Notes: a model not told the origin generated them from the letters alone. Shown: positions 21,355 to 57,496, numbered from the stretch's first letter. The stretch is 64,000 nt of DNA from Alphaproteobacteria bacterium MedPE-SWcel (GCA_001874255.1 MPDC01000009.1:30490-94489); one strand, 5' to 3'. Translations and numbers: made by a program.

Positions 21355-24258
21355 TCAGCTGCCCGGCGGTGTCAACCGATCCCGAAGCAGGGCCAGAGGA
21401 TGCGCCTTCAGGCTGAGGCGCATGGCGACATAGTCCTCCACCACTTCCTCGCCGAGGGTCATCTTCGGCAGGTTGGCCTCAGGCTCATCGATGATTTCGC
21501 CATCAATCTCGCGCGAGAACAGCGGCAGGGGCTTTGCCGCCGACACCGCCTTGGCCGCCCAGAGCGCCTCTCGACGGTTCAGGCCCAAGCTGGCAAAGGC
21601 GTCCGCCTCTGCCAGCCGCTCGATCACCCGTGGCGCCAGCCCTGCCTTGCGCCAGACATCCTCTACCGTGTGATAGCCATTGCCGCGGGCCGCCGTCAGC
21701 CAGCCCGCGTCCTCTTCCGATATCCCCTTGATCTGCCGGAACCCCAGCCGCAGAGCCAACCCGCCACGCGCGTCGGGCTCCATCACATTGTCCCAATAGG
21801 AGCTGTTGATGCAAATCGGCCGGACATCGACCTGATGTTCCCGCGCATCCCGCACGATCTGCGCCGGGGCGTAAAATCCCATTGGCTGCGCATTCAGCAA
21901 CGCACAGGCAAAGATGCCGGGGTGATGGCATTTGATCCAGGCCGAGGCATAGACCAGCAGCGCGAAACTTGCCGCGTGACTTTCGGGGAAACCGTAGGCG
22001 CCGAAGCCCTCGATCTGGGAAAAACATCGCTCGGAAAATTCCGCGTCATAGCCGTTTTTCGCCATGCCCCGCAGAAACAGGGAGCGGAATTCGCTGACCG
22101 AGCCGTGTTTCTTGAAGGTCGCAAGCGACCGGCGCAGGCGATCGGCCTGTTCCGGTGTGAAACCCGCACCGACCATGGCAATCTGCATTGCCTGCTCCTG
22201 GAACAGCGGCACGCCAAGGGTCTTTCCAAGCACCTCGCCCAACGCATCCGACGGGAAAGAGACCGGCTCCTCGCCATTGCGACGCCGGATATAGGGATGC
22301 ACCATATCGCCCTGGATCGGCCCCGGACGGATGATCGCAACCTCGATCACCAGATCATAGAAATCCCGTGGCCGCATCCGTGGCAAGAAGTTCATCTGCG
22401 CCCGGCTTTCCACCTGAAACACACCGATGCTGTCGGCGCGACAGAGCATGTCATAGACTCGCGGATCTTCTGTCGGCAGGGTGGCGAGGGTGAAATCCTG
22501 CCGCAAATGCTGGTGCATCAGGTCAAACGCCTTGCGGATGCAGGTCAGCATGCCGAGGCTCAGCACGTCGACCTTGAGAATGCCCAATGCGTCGATATCG
22601 TCCTTGTCCCAGCAGATGACTGTGCGCCCCTCCATGCTGGCATTCTCGATCGGGACCAGTTCATCCAACCTGCCTTCGGTAATGACGAAACCGCCCACAT
22701 GCTGGCTCAGGTGACGGGGAAAGCCGATGATCTCCTCGACCAGCGCCATGGTCTGGATCAGTCGCCGGTCGGTGGGATCAAGGCCGATTTCACGCATCCG
22801 CTCCGCTTCGAGTCCCTGCGTCGTGAAAGACCCCCAAAGCTGGGAAGACAGCGCCGAGATGGTATCCTCGCTCAGCCCCATGGCGCGGCCCACCTCGCGA
22901 ATGGCGCGTTTGCCACGATAGTGGATCACCGTGGCACAGAGCCCCGCGCGGTGGCGCCCGTAGCGGTCATAGATCCACTGGATCACCTCCTCGCGCCGCT
23001 CGTGTTCGAAGTCCACGTCAATGTCCGGCGGCTCGTCGCGGGCTTCGGAAATGAACCGTTCGAAGACCATGGTGCCGATCTCGGGCGAGATGGAGGTGAT
23101 GCCGAGACAATAGCACAGGACCGAATTCGCCGCCGAGCCGCGCCCCTGGCACAGAATATCGCGGGAGCGGGCAAAGGCGACAATATCATTGACGGTGAGG
23201 AAATAGGCTTCGTATTTCAGCTTCGCGATCAGGGCCAGCTCGTGAGACAGCATCTGCTGCACCTGGGGGGTTGCCCCGCCCGGATAGCGCCATTTCAGGC
23301 CCGCATGCGCAAGGCGATGCAGGCGGTCGGCCGGGGTCTCGCCCTGACCTTCATCCGGATAGTCATAGCGCAGTTCATCCAGGCTGAAATTCAGCGTGCC
23401 CGCAAGGTCAGCAGCGCGGGTCACAGCCTCCTCGTAGCCTGCAAATATCCGGTACATCTCCGCTTCCGACCGCAGGCGCTGCTCCGCATTGGCCAGTGCA
23501 TTTCGCCCCAGGGCCTCGACCCGGAGACCGAGCCGGATGGCCGACAGCACATCCCCCAGACGGCGGCGGCTGCCGTGATGCAGGCGCGGTGCGGCCGCCG
23601 CCAGCGTCGGCAGGCCAAGCCGCCCGGCCACCTCTGTCAGCGCCGCAAACCGCTCCGTATCGGCGCCATCGTAGCCGGGCGCCATCAACAGATGCATGCG
23701 CCCGGCAAAGCGGCGCGTCAGAGCGCCCATATGCGGCCCCCATCCATACGCGCCGCATGGCAAGGGATGCGATTGTGGCACCAGAAGCAGGTGGAGATCC
23801 TGCGCGTGATCCAAAAGATCCTGCACGTTCAATATGCAAGACCCCTTCTCCGCCCGCAGCCGCCCCCTGGACACAAGCCGTGAGAGCCCTCCCCAGCCAA
23901 TGCGGGTCCGGGGCAGGACAATCACATCGGGTGCGTCTGTGAACACCAGCCGGGCGGCGGGAATCAGACGCGGCACCGCATGGATCGGGAAGCTCTCGCC
24001 ACCGGACCCATTCGCAAGAGGGTCAGGGCAGGGCGGACCAATCATCGTATGCGCACGCTCCCAGGCTTGTCGCTCCTGAACTCGCCGCGCGATGTCGCGC
24101 ACCGCCACATGCGCCCGCACAATCCCCGCAACCGAGTTCTCATCCGCGATTGCCACCCCTGCAATGCCAAGCTCCAGCGCCCGCGTCACGTACTCCTCGG
24201 GATGAGACGCCCCAGTCAGGAACGTGAAATTGGAAAGACAGGCGAACTCGACAAACAT
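21355..24258 (-). CDS. dnaE2: Error-prone DNA polymerase DnaE2 (ImuC), C-terminally short
   Basis: SNFTFLTGASHPEE PHP start, GRGSAANS, PPDIDVDFEHERRE, KVDVLSLG and YGFPESHAASFA. Confidence 0.93.
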   Translation of the reverse strand: MFVEFACLSNFTFLTGASHPEEYVTRALELGIAGVAIADENSVAGIVRAHVAVRDIARRVQERQAWERAHTMIGPPCPDPLANGSGGESFPIHAVPRLIPAARLVFTDAPDVIVLPRTRIGWGGLSRLVSRGRLRAEKGSCILNVQDLLDHAQDLHLLLVPQSHPLPCGAYGWGPHMGALTRRFAGRMHLLMAPGYDGADTERFAALTEVAGRLGLPTLAAAAPRLHHGSRRRLGDVLSAIRLGLRVEALGRNALANAEQRLRSEAEMYRIFAGYEEAVTRAADLAGTLNFSLDELRYDYPDEGQGETPADRLHRLAHAGLKWRYPGGATPQVQQMLSHELALIAKLKYEAYFLTVNDIVAFARSRDILCQGRGSAANSVLCYCLGITSISPEIGTMVFERFISEARDEPPDIDVDFEHERREEVIQWIYDRYGRHRAGLCATVIHYRGKRAIREVGRAMGLSEDTISALSSQLWGSFTTQGLEAERMREIGLDPTDRRLIQTMALVEEIIGFPRHLSQHVGGFVITEGRLDELVPIENASMEGRTVICWDKDDIDALGILKVDVLSLGMLTCIRKAFDLMHQHLRQDFTLATLPTEDPRVYDMLCRADSIGVFQVESRAQMNFLPRMRPRDFYDLVIEVAIIRPGPIQGDMVHPYIRRRNGEEPVSFPSDALGEVLGKTLGVPLFQEQAMQIAMVGAGFTPEQADRLRRSLATFKKHGSVSEFRSLFLRGMAKNGYDAEFSERCFSQIEGFGAYGFPESHAASFALLVYASAWIKCHHPGIFACALLNAQPMGFYAPAQIVRDAREHQVDVRPICINSSYWDNVMEPDARGGLALRLGFRQIKGISEEDAGWLTAARGNGYHTVEDVWRKAGLAPRVIERLAEADAFASLGLNRREALWAAKAVSAAKPLPLFSREIDGEIIDEPEANLPKMTLGEEVVEDYVAMRLSLKAHPLALLRDRLTPPGS

Positions 24259-29517: not shown

Positions 29518-30285
29518 CTACGCGGCCTGAAGTGCGCGCATCCATCGCAGGCTGTCCTCGGTTCGAGGGGTGCTGGGGGTGTATTCCGCACTGACCCAGC
29601 CGCTGTATCCGCTGGCATCGATCGCGGCGAAAAGCTCGGTGAAATCCAGCGGCCCGCGCCCCGGCTCACACCGCGACGGTGCGGCCGCGAATTGCACATG
29701 AGCCGCGCGATGCCCGAAAGTTTCCCAGACCTTGAGCGCATCACCATGGATCAATTGGGCATGATAGGCATCGAATTGAAGCGCGACATTATTGCAGCCG
29801 ACCTCGTCCAGGATGTCCACCGCGAGATTGTAGTCATCCAGGAAATAGCCGGGGAAGTCGCCCGAGTTCAGGGGCTCGATGGTGAAGTTCTGATAGGGTG
29901 CCGCTTCGGCCGCAGCCTGTAGATTTCGCACGAAGGTCCTGCGCGCCTCTTCGCCCTTTGCAGGCCCCGCCATCACATGGATATGGCCCGCCTTCAACGC
30001 CTCTGCATAGCGCAGCACCCGGCGAATATCGCGCTGAAACCGGTCGGCCAACTCAGGCACCGCCGCATACCCTGGATCACCGCCTGTGTAGTTTGGCGGC
30101 GGCGCATTGATCAAAACCAGCTCCAACCCGTTGGCCAGCAGCGCGCGCTGCGTTTCCTTTGCTGCGAATTCATAGGGAAACAGCACCTCCACCGCCTCGA
30201 AACCAGCCTGGGCCGCAGCCGAAAACCGGTCCAGAAATGGCAGCTCTGCAAAGAGCATGGATAGATTCGCCGCGAACCTTGGCAT
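29518..30285 (-). CDS. Hydroxypyruvate isomerase (Hyi) family TIM-barrel protein
   Basis: MPRFAANLSMLFAE, IHVMAG, IEPLN, QFDAYHAQ and GWVSAEY; AGGAGG RBS. Confidence 0.9.
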   Translation of the reverse strand: MPRFAANLSMLFAELPFLDRFSAAAQAGFEAVEVLFPYEFAAKETQRALLANGLELVLINAPPPNYTGGDPGYAAVPELADRFQRDIRRVLRYAEALKAGHIHVMAGPAKGEEARRTFVRNLQAAAEAAPYQNFTIEPLNSGDFPGYFLDDYNLAVDILDEVGCNNVALQFDAYHAQLIHGDALKVWETFGHRAAHVQFAAAPSRCEPGRGPLDFTELFAAIDASGYSGWVSAEYTPSTPRTEDSLRWMRALQAA

Positions 30286-55871: not shown

Positions 55872-55903
55872 ACAAGTCTCCGCGACCTTGTCTAAAAAAC
55901 GGA
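55872..55903 (+). promoter_or_regulatory. Class I preQ1 riboswitch aptamer (predicted)
   Basis: P1 ACAAG/CUUGU; 10-nt loop UCUCCGCGAC; tail CUAAAAAACGGA; pseudoknot UCCG/CGGA; ends 7 nt before the ATG of a queuosine-precursor transporter. Confidence 0.8.
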
Positions 55904-55910
55904 TCCAGAT

Positions 55911-56543
55911 ATGACCCGCACTTATCTTCCTGGCATTCTTGCCATGGCCGCCGTTGTTGTGGCCTCCAATATCCTCGTTCAGTTTCTCTTCGGCAACTGG
56001 CTGACCTGGGGCGCCTTTACCTACCCGGTCGCCTTTCTCGTCACCGATGTCATGAACCGCGTCTACGGCGCCACCGCGGCACGCCGCGTTGTTCTGGCGG
56101 GCTTTGCCGTCGGCGTGATCTGCTCCCTTGTCGGCACTCAGATCATGGGCGAATTCGGCCCCCTCGTCACCCTGCGCATCGCCATCGGCTCCGGCGTGGC
56201 CTTCCTCGTGGCGCAACTGTCAGACGTGGCAATCTTTTCCGCATTGCGCGGGGGGAAATGGTGGCGCGCGCCGCTGGCCTCGACATTGGTCGGCTCCACG
56301 CTGGACACCGCCATCTTCTTTACAGTCGCCTTCTCCGGCGCCCTGACGGCGCTGGAACCGGCCAACGATGTCTCCTGGGCGGGCGAAATGCTGCCGCTTC
56401 TGGGTGCCGGACCTGTGGCGCCGCTCTGGGTGTCTCTGGCCGTGGCCGACTGGGGCGTAAAGCTCTCTCTGGCACTTGTCGCGCTCATCCCGTTCCGCCT
56501 GATCGTTGCCCGTCTGGCGGGCAGCCAGACCACCACGGCCTGA
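55911..56543 (+). CDS. VUT family (YhhQ/DUF165) queuosine-precursor transporter
   Basis: ASNILVQF, LTWGAFTYPVAFLVTDVMNRVYG, IAIGSGVAFLVAQLSDV and DTAIFFTVAF. Confidence 0.9.
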   Translation: MTRTYLPGILAMAAVVVASNILVQFLFGNWLTWGAFTYPVAFLVTDVMNRVYGATAARRVVLAGFAVGVICSLVGTQIMGEFGPLVTLRIAIGSGVAFLVAQLSDVAIFSALRGGKWWRAPLASTLVGSTLDTAIFFTVAFSGALTALEPANDVSWAGEMLPLLGAGPVAPLWVSLAVADWGVKLSLALVALIPFRLIVARLAGSQTTTA

Positions 56544-56627
56544 TTTCGCGCGAATTTCATTTGGCGATCCTCCGCATCCGTGCCAGTCTCAGGACTATCG
56601 GAAACAATGAGTAAAGGAGGTGATCCA

Positions 56628-56684
56628 GTGTCAAGAAAGGTATTGGAACAAGGCGCAGCAACAACCGGAGCGGCCCACCCCTGA
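56628..56684 (+). CDS. Candidate 18-aa peptide MSRKVLEQGAATTGAAHP
   Basis: GTG start 7 nt after GGAGG within AAAGGAGGTGATCCAG; TGA at 56682. Translation unproven. Confidence 0.4.
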   Translation: MSRKVLEQGAATTGAAHP

Positions 56685-56761
56685 GGCAGCCCTCGTTGGC
56701 AGAGGCCGCACCGGCCGGGTTGGAATGCCCTCACCTGCCTTTGTTCTCAACAGACCTTCGG

Positions 56762-56791
56762 AAGGGCCGCTCCAGATCGGGCGGCCCTTTT
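56762..56791 (+). terminator. Rho-independent terminator
   Basis: AAGGGCCGCTC-CAGATC-GGGCGGCCCTT followed by TT (T-run 56788-56791). Confidence 0.8.
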
Positions 56792-56876
56792 CCCGTCCAC
56801 AGAGCTTCCCGTCCACAGCTTCCTGTCCAGAGCGTCCTGTCCAGAGCGTCCTGTCCAGAGCGTCCTGTCCAGGGGC
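56791..56876. repeat. Tandem array about 6 x 14 bp (TCCTGTCCAGAGCG)
   Basis: Perfect units at 56821, 56835 and 56849; variant units at 56791, 56807 and 56863. Confidence 0.92.
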
Positions 56877-57076
56877 CAGCATGTCAGGCTGCCTTTCATG
56901 TCAGGGATCTCTTCCGGCTATCCGGCGACACATCCGAAAACGGGTTCGCAATGCCAATAGCAGACCAGATTGACGCTCCGCGATCTCCCCCGCGATCTCC
57001 GACTTGCGTACAATAGATCGGTCCAGGCTGCGGTTCTGGCTTTGCCCTGCCGCAACAACGCCCTATTGTCCGCCCC

Positions 57077-57496
57077 ATGCTGCAGATTAGCGATGATATC
57101 ACCCTTCAGGACTGGGAACTGACCGAGAGCTTCATGCGCGCCTCCGGGCCGGGCGGGCAGAACGTCAACAAGGTGTCCTCCGCCGTCGAGCTGCGGTTCG
57201 AGGCAGAGCGATCCCCGCATTTGCCCGCCCCTGTCAAAACCCGCCTGCGGCGGATCGCCGGTCGGCGCTGGACCAAGGACGGCGCGGTCATCCTGCAATG
57301 CGACGAAACCCGGTCTCAGGTGCGCAATCGCGAAATCATACGGGAACGGCTGGCCGATCTGATCCGGCAGGCCTTGGTCAAACCGAAACGCCGCATTGCG
57401 ACCAAACCCACCCGCGGCAGTGTCGAACGTCGCATCAAGGCGAAAAAGACCCGCGCCGGCGTCAAATCCCTGCGCGGCCGTGTCGACGGGGAATGA
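57077..57496 (+). CDS. arfB: Alternative ribosome rescue factor B (peptidyl-tRNA hydrolase)
   Basis: RASGPGGQNVNK, RSQVRNR, and basic C-terminal tail KPKRRIATKPTRGSVERRIKAKK. Confidence 0.95.
   Translation: MLQISDDITLQDWELTESFMRASGPGGQNVNKVSSAVELRFEAERSPHLPAPVKTRLRRIAGRRWTKDGAVILQCDETRSQVRNREIIRERLADLIRQALVKPKRRIATKPTRGSVERRIKAKKTRAGVKSLRGRVDGE

Follow-up and report, generated by a model that had tools for sequence, protein, structure and literature searches.

An rreR small mRNA gene with an extended, probably self-masked Shine-Dalgarno sequence between yhhQ and arfB in an alphaproteobacterium

The genome of Alphaproteobacteria bacterium MedPE-SWcel (GCA_001874255.1) carries, between a transporter gene (yhhQ) and the ribosome-rescue gene arfB, a short element in which a sequence complementary to the 3' end of 16S rRNA runs directly into a very small open reading frame. 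What kind of gene this is, and what so strong a ribosome-binding site might do there, are the questions addressed here for a single stretch of 64,000 nucleotides (MPDC01000009.1:30490-94489), which we refer to as the window and from the first letter of which all positions are counted. A first-pass annotation had presented the element as a hidden transcript with a Shine-Dalgarno (SD) sequence that its own 3' region can lock away. The feature is real and its anatomy had been read accurately, but the family and the exact anatomy were published in 2016 under the name rreR, and the Caulobacter RNA CC2171 is a distant relative, so the suggestion of a new transcript does not hold. Its value as a discovery is small, being that of a rediscovery, and the instance in the window adds comparative detail only.

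The rre genes ('ribosome-regulated expression') encode small mRNAs, of which rreR is the Rhodobacterales type (Hahn et al., RNA Biol 2016/17, PMC5711450). rreR was named and aligned for 16 species of Rhodobacterales, including Paracoccus denitrificans, Dinoroseobacter shibae and Rhodobacter sphaeroides, and its hallmarks are an anti-16S complement of at least 16 nt that ends in the G of a GTG codon, a small open reading frame (sORF) of 18 codons, and occurrence in the Rhodobacter/Roseobacter clade (PMC5711450). The experiments of Hahn et al. were confined, among the rre genes, to rreB of Bradyrhizobiaceae, whose mRNA of 165 nt has a 14-codon ORF and an SD of 17 nt that extends over the first base of GTG (PMC5711450). 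The rreB RNA co-sediments with the 30S subunit, the 5' extension of its SD driving localisation to ribosomes; it is weakly translated, the long SD and the GTG holding translation low, and its turnover depends on the start codon, replacement of which by a stop codon stabilises the RNA (PMC5711450).

We regard it as very likely that the window element is a stand-alone rreR gene of approximately 195 nt, placed between yhhQ and arfB and equipped with a promoter and a terminator of its own, whose RNA engages ribosomes and masks itself. No stronger natural ribosome-binding site is known from these bacteria than that of rreR, which is kept as a single copy in most Rhodobacteraceae and represented by other forms across the Alphaproteobacteria; standard annotation overlooks it, its Rfam score being sub-threshold and its peptide belonging to no protein family. 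Handles for finding its function are the conserved mimic of the anti-SD that masks the SD, an ORF length conserved above the peptide, the constant frame of the mimic in the CC2171 branch, and the yhhQ-rreR-arfB neighbourhood with its probably leaderless arfB.

Identity of the element

The extended SD, AAAGGAGGTGATCCAG, occupies positions 56613-56628 of the plus strand and is, by direct reading, a perfect 16-nt complement of the 16S rRNA 3' end (CUGGAUCACCUCCUUU), as had been claimed. It occurs once in the window, where shuffling gives an expectation of 0.02 matches at two mismatches or fewer, and once in the 4.08-Mb assembly, which does not contain the 16S 3' end. In each of two complete genomes from this genus the 16S 3' end, CTGGATCACCTCCTTTC, is present 5-6 times, and hence the 16-mer of the window is complementary to the real 16S tail of the genus; the same two genomes also carry the antisense of their own rreR element's complement. 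Complementarity stops at 16 nt because position 56612 is T where G is required. The duplex of SD and 16S tail has a predicted energy of -28.1 kcal/mol, against -8.7 kcal/mol for GGAGG alone. Two partial copies with two mismatches each, CGAGGAGGTGATCCAG and ACAGGCGGTGATCCAG, are found on the minus strand at 22978-22993 and 30072-30087; they apparently fall within coding sequence (..EEVIQW.. and ..GGDPGY..), with neither an ORF start nor a hairpin nearby, and look incidental.

The last base of the complement, G56628, is also the first base of a GTG start codon (56628-56630), from which a plus-strand sORF of 18 codons can be read directly to a TGA stop at 56682-56684 (56628-56684; GTG TCA AGA AAG GTA TTG GAA CAA GGC GCA GCA ACA ACC GGA GCG GCC CAC CCC TGA), in agreement with the ORF first described. 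The predicted peptide, MSRKVLEQGAATTGAAHP, shares 8 of its 18 residues with that of the P. denitrificans copy, MSRVILERGVGTVRGAVA, which belongs to a species in Fig. 8 of Hahn et al., has the same architecture and aligns with the window element. The host, too, is of the appropriate clade, a roseobacter, the closest named relatives of its ArfB being those of Chachezhania, Ruegeria, Marinibacterium and Pseudodonghicola. On its sequence, then, the window element is an rreR orthologue and hence already known (described in 2016), since it has each of the sequence hallmarks given by Hahn et al. 2016. It resembles published rreR (PMC5711450) in complement, GTG, codon number, clade and a peptide of the MSR..LE.G..T type, and the terminator-ended transcript of ~190 nt described there is what would be predicted here. 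The peptide of the window's genus is divergent, with EQGAATTG where most genera have ERGVGTV. Neither an anti-SD mimic in the 3' part of rreR nor the position between yhhQ and arfB was found in the main text of PMC5711450, which discusses only the hairpin of rreB as an SD structure.

The first-pass annotation had asked for an Rfam search, the outcome of which depends on the threshold. At gathering thresholds no family was found anywhere in the window; a permissive search returned a full-length match (1-159) to RF01867 (CC2171) at 34.1 bits, E ~1e-5, where the gathering score is 75 bits. The P. denitrificans copy scores alike (33.7 bits) and other rreR copies reach 30-53 bits, so that annotation based on Rfam misses rreR because it scores below the RF01867 threshold. 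By this comparison the window element is a distant, below-threshold relative of RF01867, a Caulobacter sRNA (Landt et al. 2008) whose consensus opens with the same 5' motif, GAAAGGAGGUGAUCCAGUGUC, and which has the same terminator placement and is likewise single-copy. The two types differ in that CC2171-type members have ORFs of 20-26 codons (MSHCH...TWIVAS) with the anti-SD/anti-spacer mimic inside the ORF, whereas the mimic of rreR lies after the ORF. CC2171 was confirmed by Northern blot in Methylorubrum, the authors having identified no condition that affects it (bioRxiv 10.1101/2022.01.24.477521). Six rre peptides had no match in NCBIfam and Pfam, and an exact look-up of six peptides in a collection of 15 billion proteins returned none. 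Among the literature searched, Hahn et al. are cited after 2016 only in later papers of the same authors, which give no function.

The element is widespread. A DNA search recovered it from 12 of 20 genomes within the genus, and from other genera the SD with the ORF start; the window element aligns throughout with those of 74 other genera. The 17-mer GGAGGTGATCCAGTGTC, allowing one mismatch, is present in 219 of 301 genera of the family, as a single copy in nearly every genome, and a diverged copy stands at the same place in 10 of 12 genomes that lack the 17-mer pattern. RF01867 at E <= 0.001 reaches 72 of 401 genomes across the class, in many families. Approximately 40% of the 17-mer copies listed carry GGAGGTGGTCCAG, an A to G change that gives the common SD variant GGTGGTCC; this variant does not covary with 16S, which stays GGAUCACC (CTGGATCACC) wherever its end is assembled, so that the duplex of SD and anti-SD would contain a central G-U wobble, its predicted energy being -27.5 kcal/mol vs -28.1. 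A subclade within the window's own genus has a relaxed complement (GAAAGGAGGTGCTCTAGTG, GGAGGTGCTCTAGTG) and a differing 18-codon peptide, MSIGNLENGVGTVWETQH, and retains through U-G pairs the hairpin around the start codon that is described below.

Fold of the RNA and masking of the Shine-Dalgarno sequence

A candidate promoter precedes the element on the plus strand at 56561-56589, placed by position, with a -35-like TTGGCG (56561-56566), a 17-nt spacer and a -10-like CAGTCT (56584-56589); were it used, transcription would start near 56597. Approximately 65 of 85 other genera have TTGACA 51-53 nt upstream of GGAGG and CAnCCT 17 nt further on, a motif that is weaker in the window's genus. An E. 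coli-style scanner, based on the E. coli consensus, called neither promoter nor terminator on the plus strand. The rreR promoters of most other genera show TTGACA at -52 without a mismatch, and an unusually conserved spacer, AACACAAAATCTGTG, within which an inverted repeat CACA-N5-TGTG, a possible operator, can be seen; this repeat is lost in the window's genus. The putative transcript opens with a short, A/C-rich leader, AUCGGAAACAAUGAGU (56597-56612, plus strand), the 5' end of which is mostly unpaired in the minimum free energy (MFE) fold, and homologous GAAAC/CAACAA leaders are present in all relatives. It would end at an intrinsic terminator on the same strand (56761-56794), predicted in the MFE fold as a G+C-rich stem of 12 bp, formed by 56761-56772 and 56779-56790, that leads on its 3' side into UUUU. 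The strong terminator first proposed is well supported by comparison, the corresponding helix 7 being 98% paired in a 75-genus alignment with both-sided or compensatory changes in 8 of 10 stem pairs.

Between these ends the RNA is predicted to form a rod. The MFE of 56597-56795 is -84.7 kcal/mol (z = -2.9), a stability equalled by none of 200 shuffled sequences, and in this fold 56612-56623 pairs with 56731-56743 (12 bp, one bulged G) and 56608-56611 with 56746-56749. The 3' masking strand, UCACCUGCCUUUGUUCUCA (56731-56749, plus strand), is thus the predicted partner of 56608-56623, as the MFE fold and the comparison between genera indicate, and spans the whole SD, consistent with the occlusion that had been put forward; the internal duplex has a predicted energy of -20.6 kcal/mol. 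Within the rod the SD is followed by a start-codon hairpin (56624-56647, plus strand), in which UCCAGUGUC (56624-56632) pairs with GGUAUUGGA (56639-56647) and GUG lies inside the stem, and then by a central rod (56652-56729, plus strand) made of an inner stem and an apical hairpin (56682-56695) with the stop codon at its base. The inner stem, CCGGAGCGGCCC/GAGGCCGCACCGG, pairs 56665-56676 with 56702-56714 in the MFE fold, much as had been drawn from the sequence. One element of the earlier drawing has to be replaced: TCCAG (56624-56628) was thought to extend the masking helix by pairing with a distal TTGGA (56721), which is unconserved even within the genus, and it pairs instead with the nearby TTGGA (56642-56646) in the start-codon hairpin. 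The comparative data favour this local hairpin, since the corresponding helix 2 has 97% of its cells paired across the 75 genera. When the SD is blocked in folding, the 3' strand re-pairs with GAACAAGGC (56646-56654), close to the alternative partner at 56647-56654 that had been suggested.

Conservation of the pairing among homologues was assessed on the 75-genus alignment. The consensus structure is 90.7% paired there, against 41-57% when the pairing is slid, and none of 500 shuffles reached the observed values. Helices 3-6, the homologues of the central rod, show compensatory changes in other genera. The SD helix (helix 1) is 84% paired and its changes are one-sided, from G-C to G-U; its support thus comes from one-sided changes and not from true compensatory pairs, because the SD side is invariant, which is to be expected where one strand must also match 16S. 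In most genera the masking strand reads C(A/G/U)CCUCC, imitating the 16S anti-SD, and the masking helix covers only GGAGGUG; in the window's genus it reads UCACCUGCCUUUG and the helix covers more of the SD, spanning the whole complement. By partition-function folding the SD core pairs with the distal strand with P > 0.5 in 72 of 76 genera, and with P > 0.9 in 67; constrained folding puts the cost of opening the SD at ~11 kcal/mol on average.

These values suggest how such an RNA could work. The 16 bases ending in the G of GUG would match the free 3' tail of 16S rRNA over its full length, and with the whole of that tail paired the grip of rreR RNA on a 30S subunit could be far tighter than that of an ordinary mRNA. 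Near the 3' end of the RNA, a strand that imitates the 16S tail would fold onto the SD and close the molecule into a rod, so that the 30S subunit and the internal mimic would compete, both binding the same SD bases. Where the 30S subunit wins, the 18-codon ORF would be read, probably inefficiently. That it can win thermodynamically follows from the predicted energies (~-28 kcal/mol for the 16S duplex, -20.6 for the internal one). In the MFE fold of this genus all 16 nt of the complement are base-paired, none being left single-stranded as a seed, so that access would most plausibly be gained co-transcriptionally, ahead of synthesis of the 3' strand. In this respect there is a difference from rreB, whose complement offers a seed of five unpaired bases at its 5' end, and invasion by the 30S subunit is less obvious in the window's genus than in rreB. 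We infer, by analogy, that rreR behaves like rreB, and from the folding models that masking gates ribosome access to rreR and that a co-transcriptional interval is when the 30S subunit enters. The rreB gene resembles rreR in its extended SD with the first base of GTG, its tiny ORF and an SD partly enclosed in a conserved hairpin, and differs in its 14-codon ORF, in its unrelated peptide and in its location between a tRNA-Gly gene and a sensor kinase gene. Of the options offered by the first-pass annotation, that of a ribosome-binding RNA or small mRNA is the one that matches the experiments on this sister gene (PMC5711450).

Locking of an SD by 5'-3' pairing until the RNA is processed is also how a type I toxin mRNA would be described, and the predicted long-range sequestration and the very small ORF of the window element would suit one. 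The peptide MSRKVLEQGAATTGAAHP, however, is hydrophilic, with no hydrophobic or membrane segment, and no promoter-like site for an antisense RNA was called by the E. coli-style scanner on either strand of 56300-57200; the first-pass annotation had advised a search for such an RNA. Furthermore, rreR is single-copy, chromosomal and syntenic across the family where toxin loci are patchy, and overexpression of rreB constructs was not toxic, having no effect on growth in B. japonicum (PMC5711450). The doubt already voiced about this reading was well founded, and we consider a toxin extremely improbable.

Conservation of the reading frame

If rreR is a small mRNA, selection might act on its peptide, on its translation, or on neither. 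The frame has exactly 18 codons in 83 of 91 genera and starts with GTG in 88, and its stop is TGA in 40, TAG in 28 and TAA in 23. Ser2 varies synonymously only (TCT, TCG, TCA, TCC), Arg8 is AGA, CGA or AGG, Leu6 is TTG or CTG, and Gly9 and Gly11 show third-position changes only. The N-terminal 13 residues are conserved and the C-terminal five are free to vary. Read from the sequences, this codon usage shows selection on the reading frame and, within the main rreR type, favours some selection on the peptide.

Diverged subtypes of the Rhodobacteraceae retain an ORF of 17-18 codons, yet the peptides it encodes, MSSDRSEKMVRFQEEQLV and MIIGKQEQMAKVTSGEMF among them, are unrelated, so that the length of the ORF is better conserved than the sequence of its peptide. 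Comparison of these subtypes argues that the act of translation matters and not the peptide; a conserved length with a replaceable sequence would likewise favour translation as such. ORFs of the CC2171 branch contain a sequence that is complementary to the SD spacer and covaries with it (CCGG/CCGG, CTCG/CGAG, CCCG/CGGG), and the mimic stands in one reading frame in 21 of 21 cases despite indels that shift it between codon positions 11 and 14. In other alphaproteobacterial families, ORFs of the CC2171 type hold CUGGAUC(GU)CGCCUCC, an imitation of the 16S 3' end, and a GACAAUG immediately ahead of the terminator is the partner of their codons 3-5 (CAUUGUC), a pairing that shows compensatory changes.

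A purer form of riboregulation is possible, though we hold it to be the less probable reading: the RNA would be a 30S decoy that occupies or senses free anti-SD tails, its peptide functionless and its ORF acting in cis only, by loading, clearing or degrading the RNA. Such a role would explain an SD far stronger than translation can use, which in rreB lowers translation while driving 30S binding, and it accords with the unstructured state of the synthetic RreR and RreB peptides (PMC5711450), with the unrelated peptides of the diverged copies and the freely varying last five residues, and with the fact that what is constant across the family is SD and mimic rather than peptide. It is weakened by the 13 conserved N-terminal residues, whose synonymous variation, including first-position changes in Arg and Leu codons, is typical of selection on amino acids. 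A small mRNA that engages ribosomes and is masked by its own 3' strand remains our preferred description of rreR.

Neighbourhood of rreR and the question of arfB

The flanking genes were correctly named at the outset. Upstream lies the gene for YhhQ, a transporter of queuosine precursors (TIGR00697, 91.6 bits; PF02592), and downstream that for ArfB, which matches NF006718 at 179.5 bits. yhhQ lies upstream in 80 of 91 genera and arfB downstream on the same strand in 75 of 91, the gap from terminator to arfB having a median of 47 nt and measuring 40 nt or less at 28 of 65 loci. Judged by gene order, yhhQ-rreR-arfB is a conserved synteny of three translation-related genes. Before yhhQ, at 55872-55913, a candidate class I preQ1 riboswitch was considered, for which no Rfam family was found at gathering threshold.

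The position of arfB invites the view that rreR is its leader, a ribosome at the extended SD deciding whether the terminator is read through into arfB, and this was the reading we favoured at first for that proximity. Besides the close spacing and shared strand, the U-tracts of the terminators are short, and Hahn et al. speculate that a ribosome trapped on rreB leads to cleavage and ribosome rescue (PMC5711450). Attenuators of the trpL type likewise have a short ORF and then an intrinsic terminator just upstream of a gene. They differ from rreR, which has no predicted antiterminator, stands before a gene with a promoter signal, and occurs also away from arfB. The pair probability of the terminator across 75 genera is 0.96 in the free RNA, 0.97 with the SD blocked and 0.95 with the ORF blocked; being predicted in every folding state, it has no antiterminator. 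A pairing of GGAGCGGCCC with GGGCCGCTCC that had been picked out by eye in the window as an antiterminator is not conserved in other genera.

Linkage and transcription point the same way. rreR stands apart from arfB, with yhhQ still upstream, in Paracoccus denitrificans, P. shandongensis, Marinibacterium, Szabonella and Rubrimonas, and two genomes of the window's genus have arfB with neither rreR nor yhhQ upstream of it. yhhQ is at least as tightly linked to rreR as is arfB (80 of 91 genera), and rre genes in other orders have no conserved neighbour. When 70 regions upstream of arfB were anchored at the ATG they showed TT at -35/-34, T/A at -12/-11, T at -7 and C at -1, and no signal of a purine-rich SD. 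In the window (57042-57079) the candidate arfB promoter comprises TTGCCC (57042-57047), a 16-nt spacer and TATTGT (57064-57069), followed after 7 nt by ATG at 57077, again with no SD. A signal of sigma-70-type geometry that fires at the start codon, with no SD, suggests that arfB is probably leaderless and separately transcribed. In many genera the -35 region of arfB overlaps the U-tract of the rreR terminator.

Neither an exclusive pair of terminator and antiterminator nor obligate linkage to a promoterless regulated gene was found, and the attenuator was rejected on the constrained folding, the unlinked cases and the promoter signal of arfB; we judge it improbable. The regulatory link to arfB that the first-pass annotation had implied likewise finds no support, the terminator being constant, some loci unlinked and arfB provided with its own promoter signal.

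A looser connection with ribosome rescue, one that involves no attenuation, can be imagined, though we rate it as unlikely. rreR would be a switch that reads the pool of free anti-SD tails of 30S subunits and would form, with arfB and yhhQ, a module that tunes the quality control of translation. It would be a closed rod where 30S subunits are scarce, and opened, weakly translated and destroyed where there is a surplus of them; with an SD that traps ribosomes, it would be well suited to act as a substrate of rescue or as a sensor for it, and the adjoining, apparently leaderless arfB would need no anti-SD. The self-masked, stand-alone small mRNA is the reading that we retain for the locus.

Away from the yhhQ-arfB setting the family takes other forms. 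Among ~40 arfB loci of other orders, an rre gene was found nearby only in genomes of the Hyphomonas type. Hyphomonas and a metagenome-assembled genome of the Caulobacterales carry a 26-codon rre (MSSEKP...GVWLEQP..) 0.8-0.9 kb upstream of arfB, on the opposite strand and without yhhQ. A few Rhodobacteraceae have this 'MSS...EQPL' type as well, at sites not adjoining yhhQ or arfB, and in Rubrimonas it stands just downstream of yhhQ.

In the window itself a 14-nt tandem repeat begins right at the rreR terminator (56790-56872), with 5-6 copies of the units CAGAGCGTCCTGTC / TTCCCGTCCACAGC. The closest relative, whose element is 96% identical, is without the repeat and has a gap to arfB that is ~200 nt shorter; the repeat is a recent, variable insertion.
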